From Fidelibacterota bacterium (GTDB lineage Bacteria; Fidelibacterota; Marinisomatia; Marinisomatales; Marinisomataceae): 64,000 bases of DNA. Position numbers and translations under genes: made by a program. The DNA is taken from assembly GCA_045560235.1 (NCBI GenBank), contig JBJKZP010000002.1, positions 18,332 to 82,331 on the forward strand, in the 5' to 3' direction. This document shows positions 3,945 through 41,760 of this stretch, piece by piece; position 1 is the stretch's first letter, and each line of letters opens with the position of its first letter. Below the pieces are notes generated by a model. It had not been told where the DNA came from, did no database searches, and saw nothing but the letters and a program-made list of their open reading frames with translations.

Positions 3945-3987
3945 TTTTAGATTTTATATTTAGCTATTAATAGTTAGTTTTTCAACT

Positions 3988-5184: not shown

Positions 5185-6163
5185 ACTAGATAGATTGAAC
5201 GCTAAGATTCAACAAAAATCATCATTCGTGGATGAACTTAGAAATGAAATTTCTAATGTTATAGTAGGTCAGAATGACTTAATTGATAAGATTTTAATTT
5301 CAGTTATTTCTAATGGTCATATCCTTTTAGAAGGCGTCCCTGGTTTAGCAAAGACTTTAACTATCAATACTGTTGCAAGTTTAATTAATGCTGAATTCAA
5401 AAGAATACAATTTACTCCAGATATGCTTCCAGCAGATTTATTAGGAACATTGATATACAACCAAAAAACTGGAGAATTTAATACAAAAAAAGGTCCGATA
5501 TTTTCTAATATAATCTTAGCTGATGAAATAAATAGAGCTCCATCTAAAGTTCAAAGCGCTTTACTTGAATCAATGCAAGAAAGACAGGTTACGATAGGCG
5601 ATGAAACCTTTAAGCTTTCAACTCCATTTTTAGTTTTAGCTACTCAAAATCCTATTGAGCAAGAAGGTACATATCCACTTCCAGAGGCTCAAGTTGATAG
5701 GTTCATGATGAAAGTTTTGGTTGATTATCCATCTATTAGCGAAGAAAAAGAGATATTGAAAAGAGCAAGTACAGTCTCTAGTAATAAAATAAAATCTATT
5801 GTTAAATCTAAATCAATACTAGACGCACAAAATTTAGTTAACGAAATATATCTTGATTCAAAAATTGCTGATTATATTTTAAATATAGTTTTTGCAACTA
5901 GAGAGCCAGAAAATTTTAATCTATCCAAATTATGTGATCTAATTACATTTGGAGCATCTCCTCGTGCTTCGATTAATTTAGTTCTTGCTTCAAAAGCTAA
6001 AGCATTTATTGATGGAAGAGGTTATGTTATTCCTGAGGATATTAAATATGTAGCAAAAGATATATTAAGACATAGAATCTTATTGTCTTACGAAGCAGAA
6101 GCAGAGGAAATATCTTCAGAGGATATTATTGAGCAGCTTCTTCAAGAAATTCCAGTTCCTTGA
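5171..6163 (+). CDS. MoxR-family AAA+ ATPase
   Basis: Walker A GVPGLAKT, Walker B ILADEINRA, and SALLESMQERQVT, which is typical of MoxR/RavA. 330 aa. Confidence 0.9.
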   Translation: MKKNELDRLNAKIQQKSSFVDELRNEISNVIVGQNDLIDKILISVISNGHILLEGVPGLAKTLTINTVASLINAEFKRIQFTPDMLPADLLGTLIYNQKTGEFNTKKGPIFSNIILADEINRAPSKVQSALLESMQERQVTIGDETFKLSTPFLVLATQNPIEQEGTYPLPEAQVDRFMMKVLVDYPSISEEKEILKRASTVSSNKIKSIVKSKSILDAQNLVNEIYLDSKIADYILNIVFATREPENFNLSKLCDLITFGASPRASINLVLASKAKAFIDGRGYVIPEDIKYVAKDILRHRILLSYEAEAEEISSEDIIEQLLQEIPVP

Positions 6164-6170
6164 GGCTGAG

Positions 6171-7049
6171 ATGTCTAAAGAAATTTTAAAAAAAGTTCGT
6201 CAAATTGAAATCAGAACAAAAAATATAGTAAATGATTTTTTTGGAGGCGATTACCATTCAAATTTTAAGGGAAGAGGAATGACATTTTCAGAGGTAAGAG
6301 AATACGTACCGGGAGATGACATTAGATCAATAGACTGGAATGTTACCGCTAAAACAGGAAAGCCGCATATAAAAATATTTGAAGAAGAAAGAGAGCTTTC
6401 TGTTTTAATACTAATTGATGTAAGTAGCTCTGGAATATTTGGATCAAAAAAAGATTTTAAAATTGATGTTGCTGTAGAAATTGCTGCAATGCTAAGCTTT
6501 TCGGCAATTAAGAATAATGATAAGGTGGGTTTAGTTTTATTCAGCGATATAATTGAAAAATATATTCCCCCTAAAAAGGGTAAAAAGCATGTATTGAGGC
6601 TAATTACTGATATTATTAATCATGATTTTGATATAAACAAAAAGAAAACTTCAATTAAAAACGCTATTGATTTTGCTAATAAAATTTCAAAAAGAAAGAG
6701 CGTAATATTTTTGATATCTGATTTTATTGACAATGATTTTTTTAATGAATTAAAGTTTTTGAACTTTAAACATGATTTGATTGGTTTACAAATTTATGAT
6801 TCTTTTGAAAGAGATTTCCCTAATATTGGTTTAGTCAATATACATGATTCAGAAACAGGTAAAAAGGCCTGGATAGATACATCAAGCAAAAAAAATAGAG
6901 AAAATTTTTTAAAAGATTCAAATTCAAAGCTCGATTTATTTTCTAAAAAATGTAAAAATATCGGATTTGATTTATTGCAAATAAGCACTGATGATGATTA
7001 TGTAAAGTTTTTAATGCAATTTTTTAGAAAAAGAGCTAAGAGAAGTTAA
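6171..7049 (+). CDS. DUF58-family protein (MoxR partner, vWA-like fold)
   Basis: GDDIRSIDWNVTAKTGKPHIKIFEEEREL is the hallmark DUF58 motif. An ATG at 6171 lies just after the MoxR stop. The ORF-track start at 6129 would overlap MoxR. Confidence 0.85.
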   Translation: MSKEILKKVRQIEIRTKNIVNDFFGGDYHSNFKGRGMTFSEVREYVPGDDIRSIDWNVTAKTGKPHIKIFEEERELSVLILIDVSSSGIFGSKKDFKIDVAVEIAAMLSFSAIKNNDKVGLVLFSDIIEKYIPPKKGKKHVLRLITDIINHDFDINKKKTSIKNAIDFANKISKRKSVIFLISDFIDNDFFNELKFLNFKHDLIGLQIYDSFERDFPNIGLVNIHDSETGKKAWIDTSSKKNRENFLKDSNSKLDLFSKKCKNIGFDLLQISTDDDYVKFLMQFFRKRAKRS

Positions 7050-21382: not shown

Positions 21383-21664
21383 AATTCTATAATTCTAACC
21401 CTCGGTTTGTGTTAATATTTATTTTGTCCGCAGACAAATCTCTAAATGAGATTATTAATTTTTTGCAAATACTAAGCTTTCGAAAAGCTTGTTTGGCTGG
21501 CATTCCAACTTATCTATTTTTATATATTTTAGTCAAGATTAAAAATGCAAATATCTATTATTTTTTTCAAAAAAAAGATAAAAGGAATTTTTGATATGAA
21601 AAATTAAGCTATAGTCACATTATTTTGCCTACTTGTTTTGCATATATTTCTTTGTTAATATTTG

Positions 21665-24600
21665 ATGCAATTAACGCATATGACAGACATACATTTAAAC
21701 GATAAATTCTCGCTTGAAGATAAATATACTCTTTTAGAAGGCAGGATAGTTTTGTCCGGAATCCAAGCTCTTGTAAGACTTCTGCTTGATCAAAATAGAG
21801 CTGATTTAATTAAAGGATTAAATACTGGAACTCTTGTATCGGGTTATAGGGGATCTCCTGTAGGTGTTTTAGATATCAATCTTGTTAGAAATAAAAAATT
21901 ACTAGATCAGCATAATATTAACTTTATTCCAGGTGTCAACGAGGATCTTGGAGCAACGCTTATATATGGTAGCCAAATGGCAGGAATGGTATCTAATGTC
22001 AAGTATGATGGAGTGCTTGGTATGTGGTATGGAAAAGCTCCTGGAGTGGATCGTTCAGGGGATATTTTTAGACATGCAAATTTTTTGGGCGTTGGTAAAA
22101 ATGGAGGTGTGCTAGCAGTAGCTGGCGATGACCCTTCTTGCAAATCTTCTACCTTACCATCTCAATCTGAGCCAGCATTGTTTGATGCAATGATGCCAAT
22201 TTTTTATCCAGGTAATATTCAGGAGGTGCTAGACTTAGGTAGGTATGCATATGAAATGTCAAGGTATTCAGGCCTATGGTCTGGTTTCAAAATTGTAACT
22301 GATATAGCAGATGCTTTTAGTAGCGTTATCGTTCACCCAGAAAGAATCAATATTAATATTCCAGACTTTCAATACAATGGACAGCCATGGAAGCATACAC
22401 AAAACGCTAAACTTGTTGGGCATCATAGTTTACCAACTGAAAAAGAAATCCACTTGGGTAGAATTGAAGCAGCAAAGCACTTTCTGGCATCTAATGAAAT
22501 AAATAAAATTACATTTAGTTCTGATAAGGATTCTATAGGTATTATTACAGCTGGTAAAACATATTATGATGTACTAGAAGCTTTTGAATCTCTAGGATGG
22601 GATAAAGAATTCCTTAATAATAAGGGTATTAGAGTTCTAAAGCTGGGTGCAACTTTTCCTGTAGATAGTAACATTGTTAAGCGCTTTTCTGAAAATTTAG
22701 ATGAGATCTTTATTATAGAAGAAAAAAGATCTTTTATTGAAATGTTAATCAAGGAAGAAATTTATAATTATAATAATAAACCTATTATTGTTGGTAAAAA
22801 TGATGAAAACAATAAGCCTTTAATTCCGGGGTACGGAGAATTAACTGCCGATGATTTATCAAAGATTTTATTTAAAAGATATTCTTCAAGACTTGGTGTT
22901 GACTCAGATAATAAAAAAATTAATATAATTACAGAAGTTGATAAAAGGATTTATGGTCAATCCTTGAGCTCAAGGTCTATGTATTTTTGCTCAGGATGTC
23001 CTCATAATACATCAACGGTTAAACTTCCAGAAGGCGATTCAGCTTTTGGCGGTATTGGGTGTCACTTAATGGCGATGTTTGTTGATGATGGTAAAGCTTT
23101 TGGTACTACTCATATGGGTGGAGAGGGTGCTCAATGGGCTGGAATGGAGCCATTTGTTGAAAAAGAGCATATGTTCCAAAATATAGGAGATGGAACTTTT
23201 TTTCATTCAGGTTCTTTGGCTTTAAGACAAGCCGTAGCAGCTAAATCTCATATAACATACAAGATTTTATATAACAGAGCAGTCGCAATGACTGGAGCGC
23301 AAGATCCAGATGGAGGATTAGATTTACCTGAGCTAACTAAATATTTAAAATCTCAAGGCGTTGAAAAGGTTATTATAACTACAGATGATACATCTGCATA
23401 TGATACCATTGAAAAATCACGATGGGATAAAGATATTGAGATCATGCATAGAGATGATATTGTAGATGCTCAAAAGAAATTAAAAGCTACAAAAGGCGTT
23501 ACTGTATTGGTTCACGATCAGTCATGTGCAGCAAATCTGAGAAGACTAAGAAAACGTGGTTTAGCGCATGAGCCAAAGAAAAGAATTTTTATTAACGAGG
23601 CAGTTTGTGAAGGGTGCGGTGATTGTGGAGTTAAATCCAACTGTTTAAGCGTTCAGCCAATTAAAACAGAGTATGGAAGAAAAACTCAAATTGACCAACC
23701 TTCATGTAATAAGGACTATTCATGTGTTGAAGGTAATTGTCCTTCCTTTATTCAAGTCATTCCTTCTGAAAAAAATGATAAAAGAATATTGCCTGAGATA
23801 AATTTTGATCCATCAATTATCCCAAATCCTAAAAAGATTCAAAAGGATGTAGCAAACATTTTTATGCTTGGAATTGGAGGAACTGGTGTAGTTACTGTTA
23901 ATCAAATTATTTCAACAGCTGCATTTATTGAAAATAAAAAGGTGATTGCTTTGGACCAAACAGGTTTGAGTCAAAAAGGCGGATCTGTTGTTTCTCATTT
24001 AAAAATTGTAGACAATAATAAAGAGTATTCAAGTAGGGTTGCTAATGGAGAATCAGATGCTTACTTAGTATTTGATTTATTAACCGGAGCGAATCCTAAA
24101 AACATGGCTAAGCTTAGCACAAAAAATTCTACTTCTATTATTTCAACATCGGAAATACCTACAGGAGATATGGTTAGATCTACTGCTGAAGAGTATCCTG
24201 AAGCATCTTTTATGATAGATCTCATCAAAGAGTATTCTAAAGATAGTGAGCTATTAAATGCTACTGAACTTTCAGAGCATTTTTTTGGAAGTAATATGCA
24301 AGCTAATTTTATTGTTATTGGAGCCGCTTACCAAGCAGGAAGTATTCCTTTATCTAATGAGTCGATCGAAAAAGCTATCAAAATCAATGGAGTTGCTGTT
24401 AAGCAGAATACTGAAGCATTTAATATTGGTAGAAAAATAGTATCCGATCCTCATTGGATAGATACTATTGATTTATATCGTTCTGGAAGTTTGACATCAG
24501 AACCAAATTTATCTTCAGAGGCTATCAAATTAATAGATTCAATATCTCCTGATGAAGAATTGAGAAATATTCTAGAATTTCGAACTCAAGAACTTATTGA

Positions 24601-25201
24601 TTATCAAAATCTAGCTTTTGCAAAAGAATATATTGGTTTTGTTAATACAATATACATCAAAGAAAAAGACTTAAGATCAAGCTCTGAATTATCTCAAAAT
24701 GTTGCTAGATATTTATTCAAACTAATGGCAACAAAAGATGAATATGAAGTAGCTAGACTTTCTTTAAAAGCAGAACTTGATTCAGCAATTAGTCAGGAGT
24801 TTGGTAAGTCTGCAAAAGTAAGCTATATGTTGCATCCGCCATTTTTAAAGGCAATGCAAAATATCCCAATTTTAAATCTTTTACCTGGAGTAAAGTCTAA
24901 ACTTGCTTTGGGCTCTTGGTTTAAGATTTTCTACGTAATATTGAAGAATATGAAATTCCTAAGAGGAACAGCTTTTGATTTTATGGCATGGTTTAGCAAC
25001 GATGTTAGAAAAGCAGATCAAAAAGCTTTAAATCATTATAAGACTACAATTACAGAAAATATTGATAAAATTGGAAATGGAGAATACCAATCGTTAAAAG
25101 ATTTTTCAACTTTACCTGATATTATCAGAGGATATGAGGAAGTCAGACTTGAAACAATGGAAGAATATTATCAAAAATCTGATAATATTTTTAACTCATA
25201 G
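21665..25201 (+). CDS. Fused indolepyruvate:ferredoxin oxidoreductase family protein (IorA-IorB fusion)
   Basis: About 1178 aa. N-terminal LEGRIVLSGIQALVRLLLDQ, a TPP-binding region, the 4Fe-4S motif CEGCGDCGVKSNC, and a C-terminal gamma-like domain GIGGTGVVT. The ATG at 21665 follows the tracker's TTG. Confidence 0.85.
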   Translation: MQLTHMTDIHLNDKFSLEDKYTLLEGRIVLSGIQALVRLLLDQNRADLIKGLNTGTLVSGYRGSPVGVLDINLVRNKKLLDQHNINFIPGVNEDLGATLIYGSQMAGMVSNVKYDGVLGMWYGKAPGVDRSGDIFRHANFLGVGKNGGVLAVAGDDPSCKSSTLPSQSEPALFDAMMPIFYPGNIQEVLDLGRYAYEMSRYSGLWSGFKIVTDIADAFSSVIVHPERININIPDFQYNGQPWKHTQNAKLVGHHSLPTEKEIHLGRIEAAKHFLASNEINKITFSSDKDSIGIITAGKTYYDVLEAFESLGWDKEFLNNKGIRVLKLGATFPVDSNIVKRFSENLDEIFIIEEKRSFIEMLIKEEIYNYNNKPIIVGKNDENNKPLIPGYGELTADDLSKILFKRYSSRLGVDSDNKKINIITEVDKRIYGQSLSSRSMYFCSGCPHNTSTVKLPEGDSAFGGIGCHLMAMFVDDGKAFGTTHMGGEGAQWAGMEPFVEKEHMFQNIGDGTFFHSGSLALRQAVAAKSHITYKILYNRAVAMTGAQDPDGGLDLPELTKYLKSQGVEKVIITTDDTSAYDTIEKSRWDKDIEIMHRDDIVDAQKKLKATKGVTVLVHDQSCAANLRRLRKRGLAHEPKKRIFINEAVCEGCGDCGVKSNCLSVQPIKTEYGRKTQIDQPSCNKDYSCVEGNCPSFIQVIPSEKNDKRILPEINFDPSIIPNPKKIQKDVANIFMLGIGGTGVVTVNQIISTAAFIENKKVIALDQTGLSQKGGSVVSHLKIVDNNKEYSSRVANGESDAYLVFDLLTGANPKNMAKLSTKNSTSIISTSEIPTGDMVRSTAEEYPEASFMIDLIKEYSKDSELLNATELSEHFFGSNMQANFIVIGAAYQAGSIPLSNESIEKAIKINGVAVKQNTEAFNIGRKIVSDPHWIDTIDLYRSGSLTSEPNLSSEAIKLIDSISPDEELRNILEFRTQELIDYQNLAFAKEYIGFVNTIYIKEKDLRSSSELSQNVARYLFKLMATKDEYEVARLSLKAELDSAISQEFGKSAKVSYMLHPPFLKAMQNIPILNLLPGVKSKLALGSWFKIFYVILKNMKFLRGTAFDFMAWFSNDVRKADQKALNHYKTTITENIDKIGNGEYQSLKDFSTLPDIIRGYEEVRLETMEEYYQKSDNIFNS

Positions 25202-25271
25202 AAATCTATTTTTATTTCTAGTAATACCGATTATATTTGTAAAACCAAAAATTTTTAAGATAGGAACATAT

Positions 25272-27896
25272 ATGTATAAAAAATTATTAGTATTTATAGC
25301 ACTTTTTAGCTTATCATTTTCACAACATGTTCATGACGATTATAGAGATTGGATAAGGTGTGCTGCTGATGAGCTCGAACAGGAATTACAACTTTTACAT
25401 CCTGAATTTATAGCTGAAAGAGATGCTCAAATTCTTAAAGGAAAAAATTTATTACAACAAAATCCTCAATGGAGAGCAGATTTAAATTCTCAAAATACAA
25501 TTTATGTTCCTGTAATTTTTCATGTTTTATACGCAAATGCTGGAGATAATGTATCTGCTGTTCAAATTGGAGCTAATTTTGACCAAATTAATTTAGATTT
25601 TCAAAACTTAAATCCTGATGGAGATGAAATTCCATCATCACCAAATCCTAGCAATGCACCATATGATCCAGGTGTTGATTATAGTCATCAAGCTGTTAGA
25701 GGTACTCATAATATTGTATTTGTTGGTGCGCAAGGAGAAACTACAGGAGATCAGCTCATTGAAGGAATTACTATAAGAAGATATAGTATTAGTCAGTCTA
25801 CTGTTAGCGGAGTTGGTGAAGCTAGTACTTTAGCCAGCTCTACTGCAACTGATAGCGGTGTAGCAAGCGGTTACCAAGATGGATATTTAAATATTTATAT
25901 AGCTCCATTAACTGGAGGGTTGTTAGGACAGGCTTATTTAGGATTTCCTGAATCAGTTGTTTTAGATGAATCTGTCGGTTCAGTTGAAAGCCCTGGAACG
26001 GCAGGGGGCTATAATAGAGGTCGAACTTTAACCCATGAATTAGGTCATAACTTTACCTATAACCACGTTTTTAATTCCAGTAATTGTGGTAATCAATTAT
26101 GGAGCGATGTTCCAGCACAATATGTAAATAACAGAGGTGCAAATATTTATGAATGGCCAGCTGGAAGTGGAAATTTTTATGGAAGAGATGGTGAAAATAG
26201 CTGTATCTCAACATCTGGTAAAGGTGATCAGTTTATGAATTATATGGACTATGTTTATGATGATCAAATGAGAATGTTTTCTGAAGAACAGGCTCTTGAT
26301 GGCTATGCATGGGCAGCAGGTAGAAGTTGGGCCCAGGTGGTTAATGGAGTTTCAACTCAAATCGATTCAGATGTAACACAAGCTACTTCACAGTCAGAAT
26401 TTACAATTAATGTTACTTTTGAAGAGCAGGTTACCGGTTTTACACAAGATGATATTGTTTTAGAAAATGCTACTATTTCAAACTTTAATGGTGGAGATGG
26501 TACAACATATAGTTTTGATATTCAAGCAGTTCAAGATGGAGAAGTGAGAGTATCAATAGCTCCAAATAGTTGCACCGGAGTTGCATCAGGCGAATATAAT
26601 CTACCATCCAATGAATATGTGGTCATTGTTGATACTCAAGCTCCTACTGCAGGAACTTTAACAATTGGCAACATTCAAGATACGCAGTATATTATTCCAG
26701 ATCTTCCAGCTACAACAGGAGGCAATATTTGTACTCAAGGTACAAATTGTCTAAATCTCGTATTACAAGATTTTTCTGACGAGTTAACAGGTGTGCAAAC
26801 TTACTATGTTTCTGTTGGTCTATCTCCAGGAGGGCAAGAAATTGTTCCTTTGCAGGCTGAGGAAAGTGCATATTTCCAATTAGATAACTTAAGTAGTTTA
26901 GCTAATTATCAGCAGTACTTTGTTACTGTTTATGCTCAGGATTTAGTTGGACTCAATTCAGCGTCTGTGAGTAAAGGCTTCTTTTATTTTGGAAACTTAT
27001 TAGGAGATTTCAACGACGATTGGAAGGTTGATTTTGAAGATTATATTCATTTAATTAAAAATTATCCTTCACCTGAAGTTGATATTGCTCCAACTACCGG
27101 TAGTAAACCATATCTATTTCCAAACTTTGATGGCATTACGGATCAGCAAGATTTAGCAAAGTTTGAAGAAATGTGGAATTGGTCTATTGATCAGTTGAAA
27201 TATCTTGAAAATGGTGAACCAGACCCTTTCTATGATGGTCTTCCTGTTTATACACAAATTGGAACTACTCCAAACTCATTTTTAAAGATTCTTAATGGTC
27301 AGTTGACAGTTAAGTTTCCATTAGAGGTTTCAACTACTCAATTTTATTTTGAGTATGATCCTGAAAAATATAACGTGAATTATCTCACTAGTAATCTTAC
27401 TGATGACATAGTATTAAGTGCCAATGATAAAGAATTAGGAATAGTTCAATTAGAAGTTGCTAATACTTCAATGGCAAGAACAACTCCAATTCAGCTTTCA
27501 TTTGATTTTGAAAATTTAAGTGGAAGTTATGAATATATGAGAATGACATATGCTGGTTATAATAAAAATGGAGAAGCACTGCTTACTGGTTACAAAGATG
27601 AGCTTACTGCTCCAAAAAATTATCGTTTAGCACAAAGCTATCCAAATCCATTTAGTTCAGGAGGAACTACTATTGAATTTGATTTACCATCTATAACTAC
27701 TATGAGCATGGTGATTATAGATATTAGAGGAAGAGTAGTAAGAAATTTAATTCAGAATGAAGTACGTTTTGGATTTCAATCTGTGGTGTGGGATGCGAAA
27801 AATGACGACGGTGAACAAGTTAGTAGCGGCGTTTACTTTTATCAGATTCGATCTGGCAATTTTAATGAAGCTGGTAAACTTGTATTTGTAAAGTAA
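25272..27896 (+). CDS. Secreted multidomain zinc metalloprotease (M43/pappalysin-like) with Ig-like and dockerin-like repeats and a T9SS-type C-terminal sorting domain
   Basis: Signal peptide MYKKLLVFIALFSLSFSQ at the ATG at 25272. Zinc motif HELGHNFTYNH. Dockerin-like GDFNDDWKVDFEDYIHLIKNY. C-terminal YPNPFSSGGTTIEFDL...GVYFYQIR resembles the Por_Secre_tail / FlgD-Ig domain. Confidence 0.75.
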   Translation: MYKKLLVFIALFSLSFSQHVHDDYRDWIRCAADELEQELQLLHPEFIAERDAQILKGKNLLQQNPQWRADLNSQNTIYVPVIFHVLYANAGDNVSAVQIGANFDQINLDFQNLNPDGDEIPSSPNPSNAPYDPGVDYSHQAVRGTHNIVFVGAQGETTGDQLIEGITIRRYSISQSTVSGVGEASTLASSTATDSGVASGYQDGYLNIYIAPLTGGLLGQAYLGFPESVVLDESVGSVESPGTAGGYNRGRTLTHELGHNFTYNHVFNSSNCGNQLWSDVPAQYVNNRGANIYEWPAGSGNFYGRDGENSCISTSGKGDQFMNYMDYVYDDQMRMFSEEQALDGYAWAAGRSWAQVVNGVSTQIDSDVTQATSQSEFTINVTFEEQVTGFTQDDIVLENATISNFNGGDGTTYSFDIQAVQDGEVRVSIAPNSCTGVASGEYNLPSNEYVVIVDTQAPTAGTLTIGNIQDTQYIIPDLPATTGGNICTQGTNCLNLVLQDFSDELTGVQTYYVSVGLSPGGQEIVPLQAEESAYFQLDNLSSLANYQQYFVTVYAQDLVGLNSASVSKGFFYFGNLLGDFNDDWKVDFEDYIHLIKNYPSPEVDIAPTTGSKPYLFPNFDGITDQQDLAKFEEMWNWSIDQLKYLENGEPDPFYDGLPVYTQIGTTPNSFLKILNGQLTVKFPLEVSTTQFYFEYDPEKYNVNYLTSNLTDDIVLSANDKELGIVQLEVANTSMARTTPIQLSFDFENLSGSYEYMRMTYAGYNKNGEALLTGYKDELTAPKNYRLAQSYPNPFSSGGTTIEFDLPSITTMSMVIIDIRGRVVRNLIQNEVRFGFQSVVWDAKNDDGEQVSSGVYFYQIRSGNFNEAGKLVFVK

Positions 27897-32193: not shown

Positions 32194-32691
32194 ATGAAAA
32201 TCTTAAAAAAATATGCAATAATCGCAGTAATGTGTTTAAGCATTAATGCTCAGACAATGGACGAAGTTATGGAAGAAAAAAAATCTAAGTTAACAGATAT
32301 GCAATATTACGTTACTCAAGCATGTGGAACAGAGCCAGCATTTGATAATGAGTACTGGGATCACAAAGAGCCAGGTATTTATGTAGATATTGTATCTGGA
32401 GAAGCTCTTTTTTCCTCGGTACATAAATATGATTCCAACTCTGGATGGCCTTCTTTTTATCAGCCGATCGAAAAGAAGAATGTTACATTTGAACAAGATT
32501 ATGAATTAATTATGCCTAGAACGGAGGTAAAAAGCAAGGAAGGCGATTCTCACCTTGGTCATGTTTTTAATGACGGACCAAATCCTACTGGACTAAGATA
32601 TTGTATTAATTCAGCTGCGCTAAAATTTGTTCCCGTCAAAGAAATGGAAGAAAAAGGATATAAAGAGTATTTGTATCTTTTTGAAACATAA
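32194..32691 (+). CDS. msrB: Peptide-methionine (R)-S-oxide reductase MsrB with an N-terminal signal peptide
   Basis: [15 protein letters not shown] and RYCINS (catalytic Cys) motifs. N-terminal [20 protein letters not shown] looks like a Sec signal. Confidence 0.88.
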
Positions 32692-34035
32692 ATGCAAAAA
32701 GAATCTCGATTAGATGCTTTTATAGCAAATCCTTATAAATCTATGTGGACAATGGCCATGCCTATTATTGCAGGAATGATGGTCCAAACTCTTTTTAATG
32801 TAGTTGATATAATGTTCATTGGATGGCTAGGCGCAGATGAGGTTGCTGCTGTTGCTTTTGTAAGTCCATTATTCTTTATTATTATTGGTCTTGGTGTCGG
32901 AATAGGAACAGGTGCAACTGCTACTATAGCTCAATATATCGGTCAAAAAGATAAAGAAAATGCCGAAAAAACAGCTTCTCAGACTATTTTAATTGGTTTT
33001 TTAAGTACTGTATTTTTGACAGTCTTTGGAGTGATTTATGGAAAAGGATTTTTATCAATTTTAGGTGCAGAAGGAGAAATTTTATCTATAGCATATTCTT
33101 ATTTACGTATTTTAACATTTGGTCTCGGATTAGTCATTTTTTCTATGTTTTTTAGAGCTATTCTTGGAGGAGAAGGTGAAACAAAAATTCCTATGATCAT
33201 TGGTTTAATTGGAACTGTTTTAAACCTCATTTTAGACCCAATACTTATTTTTACGCTTGAATATGGCGTCAGGGGGGCAGCATTTGCTACCGTAATTAGT
33301 CAAATAGCAATGGTAGTATCATATCTATTTATTATTTTTGTAAAAAAATCCACTTATATATCATTCAATATCAGAGACTTTACTTTTAATAATCATATTA
33401 TTTCAAAAATCTTCCAAATTGGAATTCCTTCTTCATTATCAATGCTTATTATTTCATTTGGTCAAGTAGTGATGAATAAGATTCTTATTAACTATTCCAC
33501 AGAGGCAGTTGCAGCTTATCAAATCGTTTCTCGACTAGATATGTTATTATTTATGCCGATTTTAGGAATAGCAATCAGTCTAACAACCATTGTTGGAATG
33601 TTTTATGGAGCCAAAGAATATAAAAAGCTTTTATCGGTAGTTTATTATGGTATCAATAGAGCAGTAATTATTACAACAATATTTGTAATTCTATTTTTTG
33701 TACTAGCAAAAAATATTTTACCTATTTTTAGTTCAAGCTCGTTAGTTGTAGATATTGGAGTGACCTATTTAAAAATCATTATTTTAGCTTATCCAGCTGT
33801 AGGAATAAGTGTTATTTGTTCAAGAGTTTGTCAAGCGCTTGGTCAAGGTGTTCCTTTATTAATTACAACAATTACGCGTGTAATTATTTTGACTGCTCCT
33901 CTATCATATTATTTCTATTATATTGGAAAGCCTTTGGAATGGGTTTGGTTTTCGCAAGTATTTGCAATATTGATTGCTGCAATAATTTCCTATGCTTGGA
34001 TGAGATTTTATTTCAAAAAGTTTAATATTGTATGA
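32692..34035 (+). CDS. MATE-family efflux transporter
   Basis: 447 aa with about 12 TM helices. N-terminal MWTMAMPIIAGMMVQTLFNVVDIMFIG pattern is typical of MATE/NorM. Confidence 0.85.
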   Translation: MQKESRLDAFIANPYKSMWTMAMPIIAGMMVQTLFNVVDIMFIGWLGADEVAAVAFVSPLFFIIIGLGVGIGTGATATIAQYIGQKDKENAEKTASQTILIGFLSTVFLTVFGVIYGKGFLSILGAEGEILSIAYSYLRILTFGLGLVIFSMFFRAILGGEGETKIPMIIGLIGTVLNLILDPILIFTLEYGVRGAAFATVISQIAMVVSYLFIIFVKKSTYISFNIRDFTFNNHIISKIFQIGIPSSLSMLIISFGQVVMNKILINYSTEAVAAYQIVSRLDMLLFMPILGIAISLTTIVGMFYGAKEYKKLLSVVYYGINRAVIITTIFVILFFVLAKNILPIFSSSSLVVDIGVTYLKIIILAYPAVGISVICSRVCQALGQGVPLLITTITRVIILTAPLSYYFYYIGKPLEWVWFSQVFAILIAAIISYAWMRFYFKKFNIV

Positions 34036-34062: not shown

Positions 34063-34518
34063 ATGAAAGTTTTGAATAATCTTAAAGAAGCTAAGGCATT
34101 GGTTGGCGAAGAGCTTGGATTGAGTGAATGGCAAAGAATTTCTCAAAGACAAATTTCAAGATTTGGTAAAGTTACCGGCGATCAACAATGGATTCATACG
34201 GCTCCTATAAGAGCAAAACTTTATTCACCTTTCAAGACTACAATTGCACACGGTTTTCTTGTATTATCTTTACTCCCAAAGTTCTTAGAAGAAACTTATT
34301 CAATCAAGTCTGCAAAAATGGGAGTGAATTATGGCTTAAATCGCGTAAGATTCACTGCTCCTGTACCGGTAAATAGTTTTGTGCGAGGAAGAGTATTGTT
34401 AAAAGATTTTCAAGAAATTAAAAACGGAGCCAAGTTAACAGTAGAAGTGACTGTTGAGTTGAAAGACAGTAATAAGCCTGCTTGTATAGCAGAACAAGTT
34501 TTTTTGATTTACGAATAA
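34063..34518 (+). CDS. MaoC-like (R)-specific enoyl-CoA hydratase/dehydratase (hot-dog fold)
   Basis: 151 aa. Contains FGKVTGDQQWIHTAP...TTIAHGFLVLSLL, typical of a MaoC dehydratase. Confidence 0.8.
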   Translation: MKVLNNLKEAKALVGEELGLSEWQRISQRQISRFGKVTGDQQWIHTAPIRAKLYSPFKTTIAHGFLVLSLLPKFLEETYSIKSAKMGVNYGLNRVRFTAPVPVNSFVRGRVLLKDFQEIKNGAKLTVEVTVELKDSNKPACIAEQVFLIYE

Positions 34519-34533
34519 GTTTAGGAGGGGAAT

Positions 34534-35232
34534 ATTTCAGAATTATATTTAGTCAGACACGGGCAAGCATCATTTGGTAAAAAAAATTATGACAACTTAA
34601 GCGAAAAAGGTATTAAGCAATCTATTTCTTTAGGTAAAAAATTAAACAAAAAAAATTTAGTCTTTGATAATGTAGTTGTAGGTCCAATGAAAAGGCATAT
34701 TCAAACTTTCAATGGTATAAATAAAGGATATGGTCAGTCTTTAAGCGACCCAATAATTATCGATGAATTTGCTGAGAATCAATTAATGGAAATTGCTCAA
34801 TATTTTATTCCTAAGATGCTAGAAACAAATAAGAATATTAAAGAACTGATGGACGAAGTCCCTTTTTGGAAGAGAAAGAAAACGTTTTTGAAATATTTTA
34901 ATATTATCGCTGAGCAATGGATCAACGATGAATTAGATCTTTCAAATAAGAATTTTGAAAGTTATAAAAGTTTTAAAAGTCGTGTAAAGAATGCAAAAGA
35001 TAAAGTTGCTGAAATAATGAAAGAAGGCTCAAAGACTATGGTTGTATCTTCCGGAGGAACAATTACAGGAATATATGCTCAATGTCATCCGCTTTCAGCT
35101 GAAGAGATTACGCAGCTAAATTTGAAAATCAAAAATGCTTCTATTTCACTTTTTACGAAACAAAATGATACTTTTACATTAAAAGCATTTAATTGTAGTT
35201 TTATACCCAGATATTTAGAAACATACATTTAA
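34534..35232 (+). CDS. Histidine phosphatase (PGAM) family protein, apparently ATT-initiated
   Basis: The catalytic LYLVRHGQASFG motif lies upstream of the first ATG (34687), in the same frame. The frame opens after a TAG at 34522-34524. The only plausible initiator is ATT at 34534, 5 nt after AGGAGG (34523-34528). Confidence 0.7.
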   Translation: MSELYLVRHGQASFGKKNYDNLSEKGIKQSISLGKKLNKKNLVFDNVVVGPMKRHIQTFNGINKGYGQSLSDPIIIDEFAENQLMEIAQYFIPKMLETNKNIKELMDEVPFWKRKKTFLKYFNIIAEQWINDELDLSNKNFESYKSFKSRVKNAKDKVAEIMKEGSKTMVVSSGGTITGIYAQCHPLSAEEITQLNLKIKNASISLFTKQNDTFTLKAFNCSFIPRYLETYI

Positions 35233-35240
35233 GGAGAGTC

Positions 35241-36437
35241 ATGGCAATTTCAACAGAAAAATTTGAAGATATTAAATCTAAAATTCAGCAGTTTATTAAA
35301 GAAGAAATGCTTGCAGATGAAAGTTTTTTTGATATAAATCATAAGTTTGCTGATTATTTACCATTCCTTGAAGAAAAAAGAAACAAAGTCAGAGAGATGG
35401 GCCTATTTGCACCGCAAATCCCTAAAGACCATGGCGGTTTGGGATTAAGCTTACATCAGCTTGGACAAATCTATGAAATCTTAGGTCAAACTTTTTATGG
35501 ATTGTATGTATTCAATTGTCAAGCACCAGATGCTGGAAATATGGAAATTTTAATGGAGCATGGAACGGAATATCAAAAAGAAACATTTTTAAATCCATTG
35601 GTGGCAGGAAAAATTAGAAGCTGTTTTTCAATGACTGAACCTGATTACGCTGGGTCTAATCCCATTATGATGGGTACAACTGCTGTTAAAGATGGATCTA
35701 GCTATGTAATTAATGGTCATAAATGGTTTACTTCATCAGCTGATGGAGCAGACTTTGCAATTGCGATGGTTATAACCAATCCTGAAAATCCAAATCCATA
35801 CATGAGAGCATCTCAAATTATCATTCCAACCGATACTGAAGGTTTTAACTTTATAAGAAATATTTCAGTTATGGGCGATGAAGGAGACGGATGGAATGCT
35901 CATGCAGAAATAAAATATGAAAATTGCATTGTTCCAGAGCAAAATGTTTTAGGTCCAGTAGGGGCCGGTTTTAAAATTGCTCAAGATAGACTTGGTCCAG
36001 GAAGAATTCATCATTGCATGAGATGGATCGGTGAATGCGAAAGAGCATTTGAAATGATGTGTGAAAGAGCAGCATCAAGAGAATTAATGCCCGGTAAGCC
36101 TCTTGCTTTAAAGCAAACAGTTCAAAATTGGATTGCTGAATCAAGAGCTGAAATCAACGCCTCAAGACTGATGGTGTTAGATGCAGCAAAGAAAATTGAT
36201 AATGAAGGAGCTTATGCTGCAAAGGTAGAAATATCTACAATTAAATTTTATGTCGCTCAAGTGCTTCAAAATGTGCTTGATAGGGCTGTTCAGGTTCATG
36301 GAGCGTTAGGAATGACAGATGATACACCGTTAGCTTCACTATATAGACATGAACGATCTGCTAGAATATATGATGGTGCAGATGAGGTGCATAAAACTAG
36401 AGTTGCTAAAGAAATAATGAAAAAGTACTTAAAATAA
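35241..36437 (+). CDS. Acyl-CoA dehydrogenase, ACAD10/ACAD11-like subgroup
   Basis: 398 aa. CFSMTEPDYAGSNPIMM...YVINGHKWFTSSADGADFAIAMVITNP resembles the ACAD10/11 C-terminal domain. AAGGAG SD upstream. Confidence 0.88.
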   Translation: MAISTEKFEDIKSKIQQFIKEEMLADESFFDINHKFADYLPFLEEKRNKVREMGLFAPQIPKDHGGLGLSLHQLGQIYEILGQTFYGLYVFNCQAPDAGNMEILMEHGTEYQKETFLNPLVAGKIRSCFSMTEPDYAGSNPIMMGTTAVKDGSSYVINGHKWFTSSADGADFAIAMVITNPENPNPYMRASQIIIPTDTEGFNFIRNISVMGDEGDGWNAHAEIKYENCIVPEQNVLGPVGAGFKIAQDRLGPGRIHHCMRWIGECERAFEMMCERAASRELMPGKPLALKQTVQNWIAESRAEINASRLMVLDAAKKIDNEGAYAAKVEISTIKFYVAQVLQNVLDRAVQVHGALGMTDDTPLASLYRHERSARIYDGADEVHKTRVAKEIMKKYLK

Positions 36438-36441
36438 GTTT

Positions 36442-37599
36442 GTGAGAGTTTTGAGAGTTCCTCTAAAGCTAAAATTCTACTACCTATTATCGCTTTTTGT
36501 TCAAAATAAAAAAACACCTGGTTTTGATGAAGATTTTCCTAGGAATATTCGTTCAGGCGAAGAGTTTGCTCTAGAAAATCTAAAAGCATATTTACAAAAA
36601 AATGATATTGATACAACCGATTTTGAATTAAAGCAGTTTCCGAGCGGATATTCTAATCTAACATATTTTTTAAAAAATTCTTCACAAGAAATGGTTTTAA
36701 GGAGACCGCCTTATGGAGCAAAAAGTTTAAAAGGCGGCCACGATATGCTAAGAGAATATACCGTATTGAAAAACTTAAAATCTCAATTTAATAAAGTTCC
36801 AAAGGTTTATCACTACTGCGATGATAAAAGTATTTTAGGAGCACCATTTTATATAATGGATCGAGTTCAAGGATATATTATAAGGCCAAATCTTCAGCAA
36901 AAAAATTCTCCAGGCAAAGAAGTAATTGAAAAAATATCTAACTCCCTTGTAGATACCTTAGTAGAATTGCATTCAGTTAATATAAAACAAGCAAACCTGA
37001 ATGATTTAGGAAAAATTAATGGCTATGTTAAAAGGCAGGTTGAAGGATGGACAAAAAGGTATTTTCATTCAAAAACTGATTCTATTAGGGATATGGAATT
37101 TGTTGCAAAATGGTTAAATGAAAACCAGCCAAAGGAATCAAAAGAAGCAATTATTCATAATGATTTCAAGTATGATAACTTGGTATTAGATAAGAATAAT
37201 TTTTCTAACATAATTTCTGTATTGGATTGGGAAATGGCTACCATAGGTGACCCTTTTATGGATCTTGGAACTACGCTTGGATATTGGATCGATAGTAATG
37301 ATTTGCCAGAGTTAAAATTATTTCAATTGAGTGCTACTACTTTAGAAGGAAATCCATCCAGAGAGGGCATTCTTGAGATGTATGAAAAGAAATCTGGATA
37401 TACAGTTAATAAACCGGTGTTTTATTATGTATTTGGTCTTTTTAAGATTGCTGTAATAGCTCAACAAATATATTTCAGATACAAAAAAGGATTTACTAAA
37501 GATAAAAGATTTGGATTATTAAACCTCGCTGTAATGTCATTATCAGTTATGGCTAAACAAGCAATAGCTAAAGATAGATTGAGTAATTTGTTTGAATAA
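36442..37599 (+). CDS. APH/ChoK-like phosphotransferase (ACAD10/11 kinase-domain-like)
   Basis: KQFPSGYSNLTYFLKNSSQEMVLRRPP nucleotide-binding region, catalytic IHNDFKYDNLV, and LDWEMATIGDPFMDL. There is no ATG upstream of the conserved region, so the start is GTG 36442 or TTG 36451. Confidence 0.8.
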   Translation: MRVLRVPLKLKFYYLLSLFVQNKKTPGFDEDFPRNIRSGEEFALENLKAYLQKNDIDTTDFELKQFPSGYSNLTYFLKNSSQEMVLRRPPYGAKSLKGGHDMLREYTVLKNLKSQFNKVPKVYHYCDDKSILGAPFYIMDRVQGYIIRPNLQQKNSPGKEVIEKISNSLVDTLVELHSVNIKQANLNDLGKINGYVKRQVEGWTKRYFHSKTDSIRDMEFVAKWLNENQPKESKEAIIHNDFKYDNLVLDKNNFSNIISVLDWEMATIGDPFMDLGTTLGYWIDSNDLPELKLFQLSATTLEGNPSREGILEMYEKKSGYTVNKPVFYYVFGLFKIAVIAQQIYFRYKKGFTKDKRFGLLNLAVMSLSVMAKQAIAKDRLSNLFE

Positions 37600-37629
37600 A
37601 AAAAGGCCTTCAATTGAAGGCCTTTTTTT
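37598..37629. terminator. Bidirectional rho-independent terminator
   Basis: AAAAAGGCCTTC-aatt-GAAGGCCTTTTTTT lies between the convergent kinase and proteorhodopsin genes. Confidence 0.8.
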
Positions 37630-37645: not shown

Positions 37646-38353
37646 TTATTTTGTATCCATTCTAGCAGCTGCCCAAACAATGACACCTGGAAGAATTTTG
37701 TTAACAAAATCAGCTAGATTGTAAACTGTATTTACAACTACCATATCTGGCGCTGCGCCTCCACCAAAATAACCTAAAGCATAACCTAGTGGATAAATAA
37801 TCCAACCAAAAGTTACAATTTTCTTTAAGCTATCATAAGCATAGTGTCCAGCAGCGTTACTTGATCCAGCATTAGCTTCAGCAGCTTCACCTGACCAAAG
37901 TTCTCTAAGGCATAGAGCCCAGAAAAGCATACCGCCAACAAAACCAGTTGTTTCATTGACCCATGAACATGCACCTGATTCGCCTAAATAACCAAAAACA
38001 AGCATTAATGTTGAAAAACCAAGAAGTCTATGAAAAACTCCTGCACTTACTTTAGTTACTGCAAGCAGAACAATATAAAGTTCAACCATCAGTAGTGGTA
38101 CGGTAATTAACCAGTCAATATATCTAATTTCAGTAACTACATCTCCACCCATTTTTCTCATATAGATGTAGTGAATAGCAGCTATGAAACATACTAAGAA
38201 AGATACAGTTAATGATGTTTTCCATTTTGGATTTACATTGTCGCGCTCCATCCAAAAGAATAAAGAAGCGGCAATTAAAGCCATATTAACTACGAAGAAT
38301 GTAAAACCGTCCACAGTGGCCGGTGTCATCGCATCAATTAAGTTTATAAACAT
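37646..38353 (-). CDS. Proteorhodopsin (light-driven proton pump, DTE motif, Leu at the spectral tuning site)
   Basis: RYIDWLITVPLLMVELYIVL gives D/T/E at the positions homologous to D97/T101/E108, and Leu at position 105. AAIHYIYMR provides the H75 equivalent. YNLADFVNKILPG carries the Schiff-base Lys. Confidence 0.92.
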   Translation of the reverse strand: MFINLIDAMTPATVDGFTFFVVNMALIAASLFFWMERDNVNPKWKTSLTVSFLVCFIAAIHYIYMRKMGGDVVTEIRYIDWLITVPLLMVELYIVLLAVTKVSAGVFHRLLGFSTLMLVFGYLGESGACSWVNETTGFVGGMLFWALCLRELWSGEAAEANAGSSNAAGHYAYDSLKKIVTFGWIIYPLGYALGYFGGGAAPDMVVVNTVYNLADFVNKILPGVIVWAAARMDTK

Positions 38354-40221: not shown

Positions 40222-40607
40222 TGAAATCGAAAACAGTGATATATTATGACGGTATTTGTATTCTTTGCTCATCTGTAATGAGCACTTTAATCAAAATGGA
40301 TAAAGATAATATTTTATATTTTAGTCCACTGCAGTCTAACTTTGCAAAATCAACACTTGATAACAAATATTTAGAAACGATGGGTACTGTGATAGTTAAG
40401 AATGATGAAAAGATATATACTAAATCCAATGCTGCTTTTATAATTCTTGAACAACTAAAGAATCCTTTAAGATATTTATTGTATTTAGTTCCAAGTTTTT
40501 TTACTGATTTTATTTACGACTTTGTTGCAAAAAGAAGATATAGCTGGTTTGGAAAAAAAGAAGAATGTATTTTTCCATTAAACAATCCAAAATTTTTAAT
40601 TGACTGA
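40221..40607 (+). CDS. DCC-family thiol-disulfide oxidoreductase (DUF393)
   Basis: N-terminal IYYDGICILCS (DGxCxLC motif). 128 aa. Confidence 0.7.
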   Translation: MKSKTVIYYDGICILCSSVMSTLIKMDKDNILYFSPLQSNFAKSTLDNKYLETMGTVIVKNDEKIYTKSNAAFIILEQLKNPLRYLLYLVPSFFTDFIYDFVAKRRYSWFGKKEECIFPLNNPKFLID

Positions 40608-41020
40608 TGAAAAAAGAACAATTCTCTAGATTTTATGATATGGAAACGAGATGGTATGATGAAGATATGTTAGGTCATCTTAATCATGGAACCGCAGTAA
40701 CTTATTTTGAAGATGCTAGAGTGAGACATGCACATGATATTGGACTTTCACCTTACGATAGTAATAAATTTCCATTTATTGTTGCTTCAATGTCATTCAA
40801 TTTTTTAAAACAAGTCAAGCACCCAAAAAAAATCAGCATAGGACTTAAAGTTTCCAGAGTCGGAGGAAAAAGTTTCGACTATGAATATGGTTTATTTGTT
40901 GAGGATGACAATGAATGTGCAATTAGTTGCCATATGACACTTGTTTGTTTTGACTTTAGAAGCCAAAAAAGTGTAAAAGTTTTTGAAGAGATAAAAAATG
41001 ATTTTGGGGATAATGAATGA
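40607..41020 (+). CDS. 4HBT/YbgC-like acyl-CoA thioesterase (hot-dog fold)
   Basis: 137 aa. N-terminal RWYDEDMLGHLNHGTAVTYFEDAR pattern is typical of the thioesterase superfamily. Confidence 0.7.
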   Translation: MKKEQFSRFYDMETRWYDEDMLGHLNHGTAVTYFEDARVRHAHDIGLSPYDSNKFPFIVASMSFNFLKQVKHPKKISIGLKVSRVGGKSFDYEYGLFVEDDNECAISCHMTLVCFDFRSQKSVKVFEEIKNDFGDNE

Positions 41021-41760
41021 ATATTGTAATAGAAAATGATATAAAAATAATTCGAATGGGCGATAAAGGCCCAAATCTTTTAAGCGTTGATAGAGCAAAA
41101 AAAATTATTAAAGAGCTAAACTATAACGAATGTAAGGCAGTTATTTTTCTAGGAAACGATAAAGTTTTTAGCGCTGGGTTAAATCTAAAAGATTTAACAT
41201 CTGCTACAAAGCCGGATCAAGTAGCTTTAATTTTTGGTACTCTTGGAAAATTACTCCAAGCATGCAGAGATTTTCAAGGACCTGTAATCAGTATTGTAGG
41301 TGGGCATGCAATAGCTGGAGGCTGTCTTCTCGCTCTAGCTTCTGATTACCGCTATGGAATGCACGGGATGCATCGGATGGGATTGAATGAAATGGCAATT
41401 GGAATTGACTTACCATCAGATATGCTTTCAATTATTTCACATTCTATCAGTAGAGATAATTTATTTGAAGTTGCAACACAGTGCAAGATGTATACACCAG
41501 TTCAAGCTGAGAAAAAAGGATTGATAAATGAGCTAGTTGGACACCGATTTTCAGGAAAGAAAAATGCTACTTCACTTGCTTTAGAAAAAGCAAAAAAATT
41601 AGCTCAATTCTATATAAATGCTGGCGAACCATTTGTTAGGTTGAAGCAGTCGCTTATGCATGAAACTACTTTTGACTATGATATATTGATTGAAAATTGG
41701 TTCTCAGATGAGACACAGAAAAAAGTCAAAACTGTAATGAGCTCATTAGCAAAAAAATGA
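41017..41760 (+). CDS. Enoyl-CoA hydratase/isomerase (crotonase) family protein
   Basis: KVFSAGLNLKDL and VGGHAIAGGCLLALASDYR oxyanion-hole segments. Confidence 0.75.
   Translation: MNIVIENDIKIIRMGDKGPNLLSVDRAKKIIKELNYNECKAVIFLGNDKVFSAGLNLKDLTSATKPDQVALIFGTLGKLLQACRDFQGPVISIVGGHAIAGGCLLALASDYRYGMHGMHRMGLNEMAIGIDLPSDMLSIISHSISRDNLFEVATQCKMYTPVQAEKKGLINELVGHRFSGKKNATSLALEKAKKLAQFYINAGEPFVRLKQSLMHETTFDYDILIENWFSDETQKKVKTVMSSLAKK

Follow-up and report, generated by a model that had tools for sequence, protein, structure and literature searches.

What function would unite a hydratase, a phosphatase-like protein, an acyl-CoA dehydrogenase-fold enzyme and a small-molecule kinase in a single operon of a marine bacterium? 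The operon in question occupies positions 34063-37599 on the plus strand of a 64,000-nucleotide stretch of contig JBJKZP010000002.1 (the window, by which we mean the whole stretch of DNA that was analysed). A preliminary description of this DNA had remarked on a likeness between two of the products and the catalytic domains of eukaryotic ACAD10 and ACAD11, and this likeness was upheld by profile and structure-sequence ranking, which placed both the kinase and the acyl-CoA dehydrogenase (ACAD) there. We consider it probable that the operon moves 4-hydroxyacyl-CoA thioesters into beta-oxidation as the bacterial, split form of the ACAD10/ACAD11 (LvaA/LvaC) system, with the phosphatase-like protein, termed PGAM below, in an accessory role. 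The four genes are as follows.

34063-34518, plus strand: MaoC, an Rv0130-type single hot-dog (R)-specific enoyl-CoA hydratase of 151 amino acids (Pfam MaoC_dehydratas, 3.3e-23).
34534-35232, plus strand: PGAM, a histidine-phosphatase-superfamily (PGAM-like, branch 1) protein of 232 amino acids (Pfam His_Phos_1 and alignment with dPGM structures).
35241-36437, plus strand: an ACAD10/ACAD11/LvaC-type acyl-CoA dehydrogenase-fold enzyme of 398 amino acids (all three ACAD Pfam domains and matches in the PDB).
36442-37599, plus strand: an APH-fold small-molecule kinase of the ACAD10/11/LvaA type, 385 amino acids (Pfam APH, 3.5e-42), with a GTG start codon.

The genes are co-directional and follow one another in the order MaoC, PGAM, ACAD, kinase. 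Their tight spacing, as first described, is confirmed by gaps of 15 nucleotides between MaoC and PGAM, 8 between PGAM and ACAD and 4 between ACAD and kinase, when PGAM is read from an ATT start codon. The sequence motifs that had been quoted for the two principal enzymes were all located, at amino acids 65-77, 84-90 and 238-246 of the kinase and 129-141 and 157-165 of the ACAD.

When compared with solved structures, the ACAD matched human ACAD11 (2wbi) at 5e-79, with 269 bits and 40% identity over 384 amino acids, and further matches were obtained to mouse ACAD11 (8v3u, 1e-77) and to 4hr3 (2e-75), while the best ordinary ACAD of solved structure reached 3.7e-43 and 151 bits. The motif RLGPGRIHHCMR (amino acids 250-261, nucleotides 35988-36023) is identical to that of human ACAD11 and missing from the ordinary ACADs compared. 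Its residues are the equivalents of R626, H634 and R637 of mouse ACAD11, which have been tied to binding of the phosphorylated substrate (Rashan et al., PMC12440821), and the equivalent of D753 is present too. The catalytic Asp is found in YDGADEVH (amino acids 377-384, nucleotides 36369-36392), which aligns with ADGPDEVH of human ACAD11; the role of an Asp in place of the catalytic Glu of ordinary ACADs is taken from PMC12440821 and PMC11342911. In a neighbour-joining tree the operon ACAD was placed in the ACAD11 clade, together with proteobacterial, acidobacterial and Bacteroidota homologues, and not with ordinary FadE or short-chain ACADs, the outcome that would have spoken against the preliminary description; five ordinary ACADs stood apart. 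The clade signatures, RLGPGR[IV]HHCMR and the Asp, were common to the members of the ACAD11 clade, while the five ordinary ACADs, which came from the same loci, were without both. The operon ACAD is predicted to eliminate phosphate from 4-phosphoacyl-CoA. An ordinary FadE was considered as a candidate identity and rejected, given 269 bits to ACAD11 against at most 151, the tree and the signatures.

Two subclades can be told apart round the catalytic Asp, YDG(A/P)DE and ADGPD(E/Q). In the tree the former comprised the window and the homologous loci L001, L005, L054, L006, L010, L013, L015, L093 and L102, and the latter human ACAD11 with L027, L031, L042, L045, L063, L113, L126 and L127. Kinases of the window type (260-280 bits) pair with ACADs of both subclades, for example in Acinetobacter baumannii.

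The kinase gave an equally clear ranking. Among solved structures it matched 9o56 (3e-83, 283 bits, 42% identity), which is apparently the Caldalkalibacillus thermarum ACAD10-type kinase structure of a recent preprint (PMC13596139), the kinase domain of mouse ACAD11 (8e-46, 160 bits, 37% identity) and 3dxp (1e-40, 143 bits), whereas the next solved APH-like or uncharacterised chains scored 30 and 23 bits. The alternative outcome, a kinase grouping with aminoglycoside kinases, was therefore not what was found, since other solved chains reached at most 30 bits; the gene product is of the ACAD10/11 type. An aminoglycoside-resistance kinase was likewise rejected as a candidate, with 283 and 160 bits to ACAD10/11-type kinases and NCBIfam models far below their cut-offs (40 bits for APH(3') and 38 for thiamine kinase, against 205 and 299). 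The following features of the kinase were recognised.

36691-36711, plus strand: the beta3 Arg in MVLRRPP, aligned with AVLRRPP of 9o56.
36745-36759, plus strand: the alphaC Arg-Glu in MLREY, aligned with MEREF of 9o56.
37153-37179, plus strand: the catalytic loop IHNDFKYDN (His-x-Asp-x-Lys..Asn), aligned with 9o56 and ACAD11.
37225-37233, plus strand: the DWE metal-binding motif, aligned with 9o56 and ACAD11.
36445-36513, plus strand: the N-terminal extension RVLRVPLKLKFYYLLSLFVQNKK, about 30 amino acids (amino acids 2-24), from cross-locus comparison.

The roles given to these motifs are those of PMC13596139 and PMC12440821, the former describing R61 (the beta3 Arg, in place of the canonical Lys) and E78 (the alphaC Glu). 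By homology, a 4-hydroxyacyl-CoA would be the substrate of the kinase. A TTG codon at 36451 is an alternative start. The N-terminal extension is basic and hydrophobic. Among Marinimicrobia loci its protein sequence is conserved even where overall identity falls to about 50%, whereas neither the Bacteroidota homologues nor the solved structures have it; the extension may form a membrane-binding helix.

MaoC scored 82 bits with its Pfam model, against a cut-off of 27, and its best solved relative was Rv0130 of Mycobacterium tuberculosis (2c2i, 1.5e-39), with which it shares the single hot-dog fold and the Asp/His motif; the catalytic GDQQWIH at nucleotides 34177-34197 aligns with GDHQWIH of Rv0130. 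Rv0130 reportedly has (R)-specific enoyl-CoA hydratase activity, and we know of no tie between it and a 4-hydroxyacyl-CoA pathway.

Whether the four genes belong together could be assessed from their distribution. By sequence, the window, which has a G+C content of about 31%, finds its nearest kin in genomes of uncultured Marinimicrobia (SAR406): kinase identity is 90% with two uncultured marine bacterial metagenome-assembled genomes and 76-78% with two Candidatus Marinimicrobia assemblies. The order MaoC-PGAM-ACAD-kinase was found in 5 genome and 11 metagenome loci of Marinimicrobia-like origin at 47-90% protein identity, and MaoC was the first gene of the unit in all of them (16/16). The preliminary description had named the lack of such co-occurrence in other genomes as grounds for abandoning it; instead there are these 16 further four-gene loci, and PGAM-kinase-ACAD triads in Proteobacteria besides. 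The four-gene arrangement is not due to chance.

A search of the genome collection seeded with the kinase returned 41 loci, and all five from Marinimicrobia (5/5) displayed full six-gene synteny. At 26 of the 36 non-Marinimicrobia loci, from Bacteroidota and Acidobacteriota, a neighbouring open reading frame (ORF) scored as an ACAD, and every ACAD inspected from these adjacent pairs bore the HCMR motif; PGAM was present in none of the 36. The Bacteroidota kinase loci also carried short-chain dehydrogenases/reductases (SDRs), MaoC (in one case as a fusion with a crotonase), 3-hydroxyacyl-CoA dehydrogenase and additional ACADs. The fusion, in locus L006 of Arenibacter algicola (5314-6693), is a 460-amino-acid ORF directly upstream of an ACAD10/11-type ACAD and kinase, and is itself preceded by two SDR genes.

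When annotated plasmid and chromid records were searched with PGAM, the triad of PGAM, kinase and ACAD was recovered in four proteobacterial genera, in the orders ACAD-SDR-kinase-PGAM-SDR (Pseudoalteromonas), PGAM-kinase-SDR-ACAD (Azoarcus), PGAM-kinase-SDR-SDR-ACAD (Burkholderia multivorans) and ACAD-kinase-PGAM-SDR (Acinetobacter baumannii), with an HCMR-type ACAD in all four. Sulfitobacter carried a PGAM-kinase pair with other ACADs, and in Ralstonia and Cupriavidus PGAM had no kinase/ACAD pair nearby. A metagenome scan from the PGAM motif alone yielded 80 loci; 11 were Marinimicrobia-like and all of these (11/11) had the four-gene unit. Of the non-Marinimicrobia metagenome loci, 27 extended for 4 kb or more on each side; in these the kinase or the special ACAD lay within 5 kb of PGAM in 14 and both did in 11, with an SDR in 13/27 and MaoC in 2/27. 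We estimate that chance would place a roughly single-copy gene within about ten genes of PGAM in well under 1% of cases, and the linkage of PGAM (14/27) is therefore real, although not obligatory.

No recurrent other partner for PGAM emerged among the loci without kinase or ACAD nearby, where the neighbours included a SurA-like isomerase, a GGDEF protein, an ammonium transporter, PhzF, a chemoreceptor, KAS III and an AcrB pump; stop-to-stop ORF calling is noisy in the high-GC contigs of these loci. A KAS III-type beta-ketoacyl-ACP synthase was seen upstream of an unlinked PGAM, on the opposite strand, in both L043 (Ralstonia wenshanensis, 3172-4293) and L086 (6734-7729), which may reflect coincidence or common ancestry.

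Pairs of ACAD and kinase are thus widespread in Bacteroidota, Acidobacteriota and Proteobacteria, and their adjacency is kept across at least four phyla. The neighbours across phyla, namely SDR, MaoC, crotonase, 3-hydroxyacyl-CoA dehydrogenase, thiolase and AMP-binding ligase, are acyl-CoA enzymes throughout.

PGAM itself had been described as a PGAM-family phosphatase. Membership of the superfamily stood, with a His_Phos_1 match to the shortened ORF of 4.6e-10 and 39.9 bits against a cut-off of 21.7, but a canonical phosphatase it is not. Arg8, the nucleophile His9, Arg54 and Glu81 were invariant in all 142 PGAM-subfamily sequences compared (the window PGAM and 141 full-length cluster representatives), whereas the second catalytic His (His184 of E. 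coli dPGM), which belongs to AAHGN, aligned with Ser173 and was replaced in 142/142. The equivalent of dPGM Asn17 is Gly15 in the window PGAM, and Asn was outside the four commonest residues at this position; Asn201 was invariant, and Asn220 was present in 141/142. The subfamily is marked by RHGQASFG (34555-34578) and SSGG (35047-35058). This invariant set of nucleophile, Arg, Glu and Asn residues argues for an active site that has been remodelled yet remains constrained, unlike one in decay. Judged by these residues, PGAM belongs to the fold and superfamily without being a canonical phosphatase or mutase, and represents a sharply defined, uncharacterised subfamily. There were 856 clusters at 50% identity that reached E <= 1e-10 to PGAM; the top 150 cluster representatives were all single-domain proteins of up to 295 amino acids, or shorter fragments, and none was a fusion of PGAM to kinase. 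In the literature on the function of such a phosphatase, or on fatty-acid catabolism in Marinimicrobia, only one mention was found, that of Pseudomonas citronellolis (PMC6692424).

It had also been proposed that PGAM occupies the slot in which ACAD10 carries an unrelated HAD domain. This did not hold as worded, as the order here is PGAM-ACAD-kinase, in contrast to HAD-kinase-ACAD in ACAD10. A non-homologous replacement of HAD by PGAM is no more than a reasonable analogy, made more interesting by the co-occurrence data.

The active site of PGAM comes into view only when the start of the gene is revised.

34523-34536, plus strand: ribosome-binding site AGGAGGGG, followed by ATT (34534-34536) as the non-canonical start codon of the PGAM gene, from the reading frame and a comparison of 17 loci.

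A mechanical ORF list gave PGAM only as 34687-35232, a protein of 181 amino acids that begins at an internal ATG and is without the active site. The frame is open from 34525, after an in-frame stop at 34522-34524; it encodes the active-site motif LYLVRHGQASFG from 34543 and RHG at 34555, with no ATG, GTG or TTG ahead of the RHG motif. The ATT at 34534 lies five to six bases past AGGAGGGG, a ribosome-binding site of the GGAGGGG form. The homologous codon was compared across 17 loci (window, L001-L004, L046-L049, L051-L056): it is ATT in 12/17, the window included, GTG in L051 and L053 and ATG in L052, while in two of the 17 an ATG start lies four codons upstream. The 181-amino-acid ORF from 34687 was rejected, as it lacks the active site and the 17-locus comparison backs the ATT, which is the only plausible true start of PGAM. 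Of the 120 closest homologues in the database, some 90 have been annotated as 211-amino-acid truncations without RHG, so that gene callers systematically overlook the ATT start. Initiation at ATT is far less efficient than at ATG. The conserved ATT start thus implies a level of PGAM much below that of its operon neighbours, and presents a clean natural case of tuning at the start codon inside an operon.

From these observations the following route can be proposed. The APH-fold kinase, with ATP, would phosphorylate the 4-hydroxyl of a 4-hydroxyacyl-CoA, as its homologues suggest. The resulting 4-phosphoacyl-CoA would be bound by the ACAD through the Arg/His/Arg cluster of RLGPGRIHHCMR, and the catalytic Asp and FAD would, to judge by homology and the signature residues, bring about a net redox-neutral elimination of phosphate to give trans-2-enoyl-CoA. 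The Rv0130-type MaoC would then hydrate the enoyl-CoA to (R)-3-hydroxyacyl-CoA. PGAM would serve as a low-abundance accessory of the kinase step, its favoured role being that of a safety valve for stalled 4-phosphoacyl-CoA, which, or else the free 4-phospho-acid, it would hydrolyse; the alternative is a kinase-modulating partner. The hydrolase version of PGAM is the least certain part of the scheme and is put forward tentatively. Use of 4-hydroxy acids or lactones by the host is plausible.

The gene content and order, the signature residues, the homology ranking and the co-occurrence across phyla can be read directly from the DNA. Several points nevertheless weigh against the conversion of 4-hydroxyacyl-CoA proposed here. 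We infer the enzymatic activities and the physiological substrate throughout, those of the enzymes of the subclade included, and the operon ACAD falls in the YDGADE subclade of Marinimicrobia and Bacteroidota, whose sister is the ADGPDE subclade with human ACAD11 and the proteobacterial enzymes. The likeness of the operon to LvaA/LvaC passes through ACAD10/11, which the literature gives as their closest mammalian relatives, and the closest characterised relative of the kinase, that of C. thermarum, was assayed on a 1-O-alkylglycerol, not on a 4-hydroxyacyl-CoA. As regards the source of substrate, the proteins that were scanned from 19 to 51 kb of the window included no lactonase, acyl-CoA synthetase, LvaB or LvaD homologue, and a Pfam scan of 20 further proteins in that interval gave no SDR, AMP-binding ligase or sigma-54 regulator. 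The loss of the second His could mean that PGAM is no hydrolase, and about half of the fully flanked PGAM-subfamily genes stand alone in unrelated contexts.

The C. thermarum kinase directs attention to salvage of ether lipids or monoradylglycerols, in which the kinase would act on 1-O-alkyl- or acyl-glycerols, PGAM would be a lipid-phosphate phosphatase like HAD, and the ACAD and MaoC would be secondary. The best solved relative of the operon kinase, 9o56, is apparently this ACAD10-type enzyme; the preprint reports that the ACAD10 kinase and several prokaryotic homologues phosphorylate 1-O-alkylglycerols (chimyl alcohol) and that in ACAD10 the HAD domain is an alkyl-acetyl-glycerophosphate phosphatase acting on an ether-lipid intermediate (PMC13596139), and the conserved basic and hydrophobic N-terminal extension of the kinase could bind membranes. 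We nevertheless hold this salvage to be improbable, as the kinase is translationally coupled to an ACAD with every residue proposed to hold 4-phosphoacyl-CoA, the recurrent neighbours across phyla are all CoA-thioester enzymes and none is a glycerolipid enzyme, and the preprint itself leaves the relation of the two activities open. A general scan of the window proteins, with no search specific for AGPS, gave no ether-lipid synthesis gene. The ether-lipid and 4-hydroxyacyl-CoA functions need not exclude each other and may coexist. Closer to the favoured conversion of 4-hydroxyacyl-CoA is the proposal that differs from it in PGAM alone, which would be a catalytically dead or weak protein, a regulatory or scaffold partner of the kinase akin to LvaB and HAD, and would not act as a phosphatase on pathway intermediates. 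Replacement of the second catalytic His in 142/142 sequences and of the pocket Asn agrees with it, as does the histidine phosphatase gene that P. citronellolis carries at the position of lvaB in P. putida; PMC6692424 cites that LvaB is a binding partner of LvaA and that the kinase requires it for activity, and the HAD domain of ACAD10 has negligible phosphatase activity on 4-phosphoacyl-CoA and restrains the kinase (Paquay et al., PMC11342911). Such a role seems rather unlikely, however, in view of the invariant His9, Arg8, Arg54, Glu81, Ser173 and Asn201, typical of a working, remodelled site, of the half of the subfamily genes that lie away from the kinase, and of the lack of a kinase fusion in the 150 cluster representatives.

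That the operon is dedicated to levulinate (4-oxopentanoate) and equivalent to Pseudomonas lvaABCDE appears very improbable. Its kinase and ACAD are of the family equated with LvaA and LvaC in the literature, and the levulinate cluster of P. citronellolis has a histidine phosphatase gene; there is, however, no LvaD-type SDR, LvaE, LvaB or LvaR in the operon, whose gaps of 15, 8 and 4 nucleotides leave no space for additional ORFs, or among the scanned 19-51 kb proteins, the SDRs of the proteobacterial and Bacteroidota versions are here replaced by MaoC, and the host is an oligotrophic, proteorhodopsin-bearing marine Marinimicrobia. Generic annotation (acyl-CoA dehydrogenase, phosphotransferase, histidine phosphatase), with no specific NCBIfam model, would also allow an ordinary beta-oxidation ACAD and hydratase to lie by chance beside a housekeeping phosphatase and an unrelated antibiotic- or small-molecule kinase. 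Both enzymes, however, are assigned to ACAD10/11 clades by homology ranking, by signature residues and by the ACAD tree, and the adjacency is kept across at least four phyla, so that a chance neighbourhood is barely credible and effectively refuted.

The surroundings of the operon comprise the following features.

32194-32691, plus strand: MsrB, upstream of the MATE gene with a gap of 0 nucleotides.
32692-34035, plus strand: a MATE transporter, directly 5' of the MaoC gene with a gap of 27 nucleotides.
37598-37629, both directions: intrinsic terminator hairpin AAAAAAAGGCCTTCAATTGAAGGCCTTTTTTT, from RNA folding.
37646-38353, minus strand: proteorhodopsin (Bac_rhodopsin Pfam match), converging on the operon.

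Since MsrB and MATE immediately precede the operon on its own strand, and the gaps measure 0 and 27 nucleotides, the transcript may exceed the four genes. In locus L051, however, the MsrB-MATE pair is inverted while the MaoC-PGAM-ACAD-kinase unit is undisturbed, and the four genes are therefore the conserved unit. The strong terminator claimed for the end of the operon was borne out by direct folding (z = -5.6): the hairpin is GC-rich, has A and T runs on its flanks and folds at -21 kcal/mol, with z = -5.58 and none of 200 shuffles equally stable. A scan for consensus promoter and terminator patterns did not report a terminator at 37598-37629, a miss that we set aside because direct folding shows the terminator to be real. 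Its position between the kinase and the convergent proteorhodopsin gene makes it bidirectional, and most related loci of sufficient length keep the convergent proteorhodopsin with the common hairpin.

No specific NCBIfam model was matched by any of the four operon proteins, all matches being far under the curated cut-offs. Some 3 kb downstream on the same strand a 4HBT-type thioesterase (40607-41020) overlaps an enoyl-CoA hydratase/isomerase of the crotonase type (41017-41760), which adds two acyl-CoA enzymes whose substrates might be related. Elsewhere in the window, 21662-25201 encodes a 1179-amino-acid 2-oxoacid:ferredoxin oxidoreductase-like protein with POR, TPP_enzyme_C and DUF6537 domains, and 25134-27896 a 920-amino-acid protein with a type IX secretion C-terminal sorting domain. 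As listed, the two ORFs overlap by 68 nucleotides, and their TTG or ATG start calls may therefore need revision.

Split bacterial pairs of kinase and ACAD are already established by experiment (LvaA/LvaC; B. pseudomallei), and the association of a phosphatase with the pathway has been published for P. citronellolis (PMC6692424). What is new here is a further phylum for the pathway type and a minimal accessory set. The locus adds little to the core chemistry; it extends the pathway type to the uncultured, proteorhodopsin-bearing SAR406 of the open ocean, and raises the possibility that 4-hydroxy or lactone-derived lipids serve them as a carbon source. The main lead is the remodelled histidine-phosphatase-like subfamily, repeatedly linked to kinase/ACAD pairs. 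It is possible, though doubtful, that the SSGG subfamily of PGAM is a dedicated third component of bacterial 4-hydroxyacyl-CoA systems, doing the job of the HAD domain of ACAD10 and perhaps that of LvaB; as such it may gate the kinase or hydrolyse stalled 4-phosphoacyl(-CoA), and in either way control the phosphorylated intermediate. If so, three unrelated proteins would have been recruited independently to one task, which would point to a hazard general to the pathway, for instance trapping of CoA or toxicity of a phospho-intermediate. The carriers include the tractable Acinetobacter baumannii and Burkholderia, and the accessory role can therefore be tested in bacteria. The 4-hydroxy-acid route of ACAD10/11 in mammals is recent, with two groups in dispute over the roles of the ACAD10 kinase and HAD domain, and an answer on the accessory phosphatase-like module could inform that debate.

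How, then, does the operon compare with the systems already known? Mammalian ACAD10 and ACAD11 act on 4-hydroxyacyl-CoAs by the kinase and ACAD route (PMC12440821, PMC11342911), and both of their catalytic modules are homologous to the operon kinase and ACAD. Whereas these modules are fused in mammals as kinase-ACAD, they are encoded in the operon by separate genes, ACAD and then kinase; in contrast to ACAD10 there is no HAD domain, and the unrelated histidine-phosphatase-like and MaoC genes are co-encoded. In C. thermarum the ACAD10-type kinase phosphorylates chimyl alcohol and is stimulated by acetyl-CoA (PMC13596139), and the operon kinase has in common with it the beta3 Arg, the alphaC Glu, the His-x-Asp-x-Lys loop and DWE. 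Kinases of the C. thermarum, Acinetobacter and Pseudoalteromonas type score 265-283 bits with the operon kinase, while that of the Burkholderia type is only distantly similar (130 bits).

A split pair of kinase and ACAD, like that of the operon, is found in B. pseudomallei as Q63VL0 (kinase) and Q63VL1 (ACAD), which can replace the ACAD10 domains in vitro in the conversion of 4-hydroxyhexanoyl-CoA to hexenoyl-CoA (PMC11342911); our comparison set the operon beside the related locus of B. multivorans. SDRs, but no MaoC, occur in the Burkholderia cluster; in the operon the reverse holds. The levulinate cluster of P. citronellolis LA18T is induced by levulinate and has, at the site taken elsewhere by lvaB, a histidine phosphatase family gene flanked by the homologues of LvaA and LvaC, along with an LvaD-type SDR, a ligase and a regulator, and with no MaoC listed (PMC6692424). 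Its phosphatase and the operon PGAM are compared here by family name. In P. putida KT2440 the kinase/ACAD route of LvaA (with LvaB) and LvaC is established and has been equated with the ACAD10/11 domains (PMC12440821, PMC11342911). The logic is the same as that proposed for the operon, phosphorylation of the 4-hydroxyl being followed by phosphate elimination by an ACAD-fold enzyme; while P. putida also has LvaB, the SDR LvaD, the ligase LvaE and LvaR, the operon is without them and carries the PGAM-like and MaoC genes in addition.

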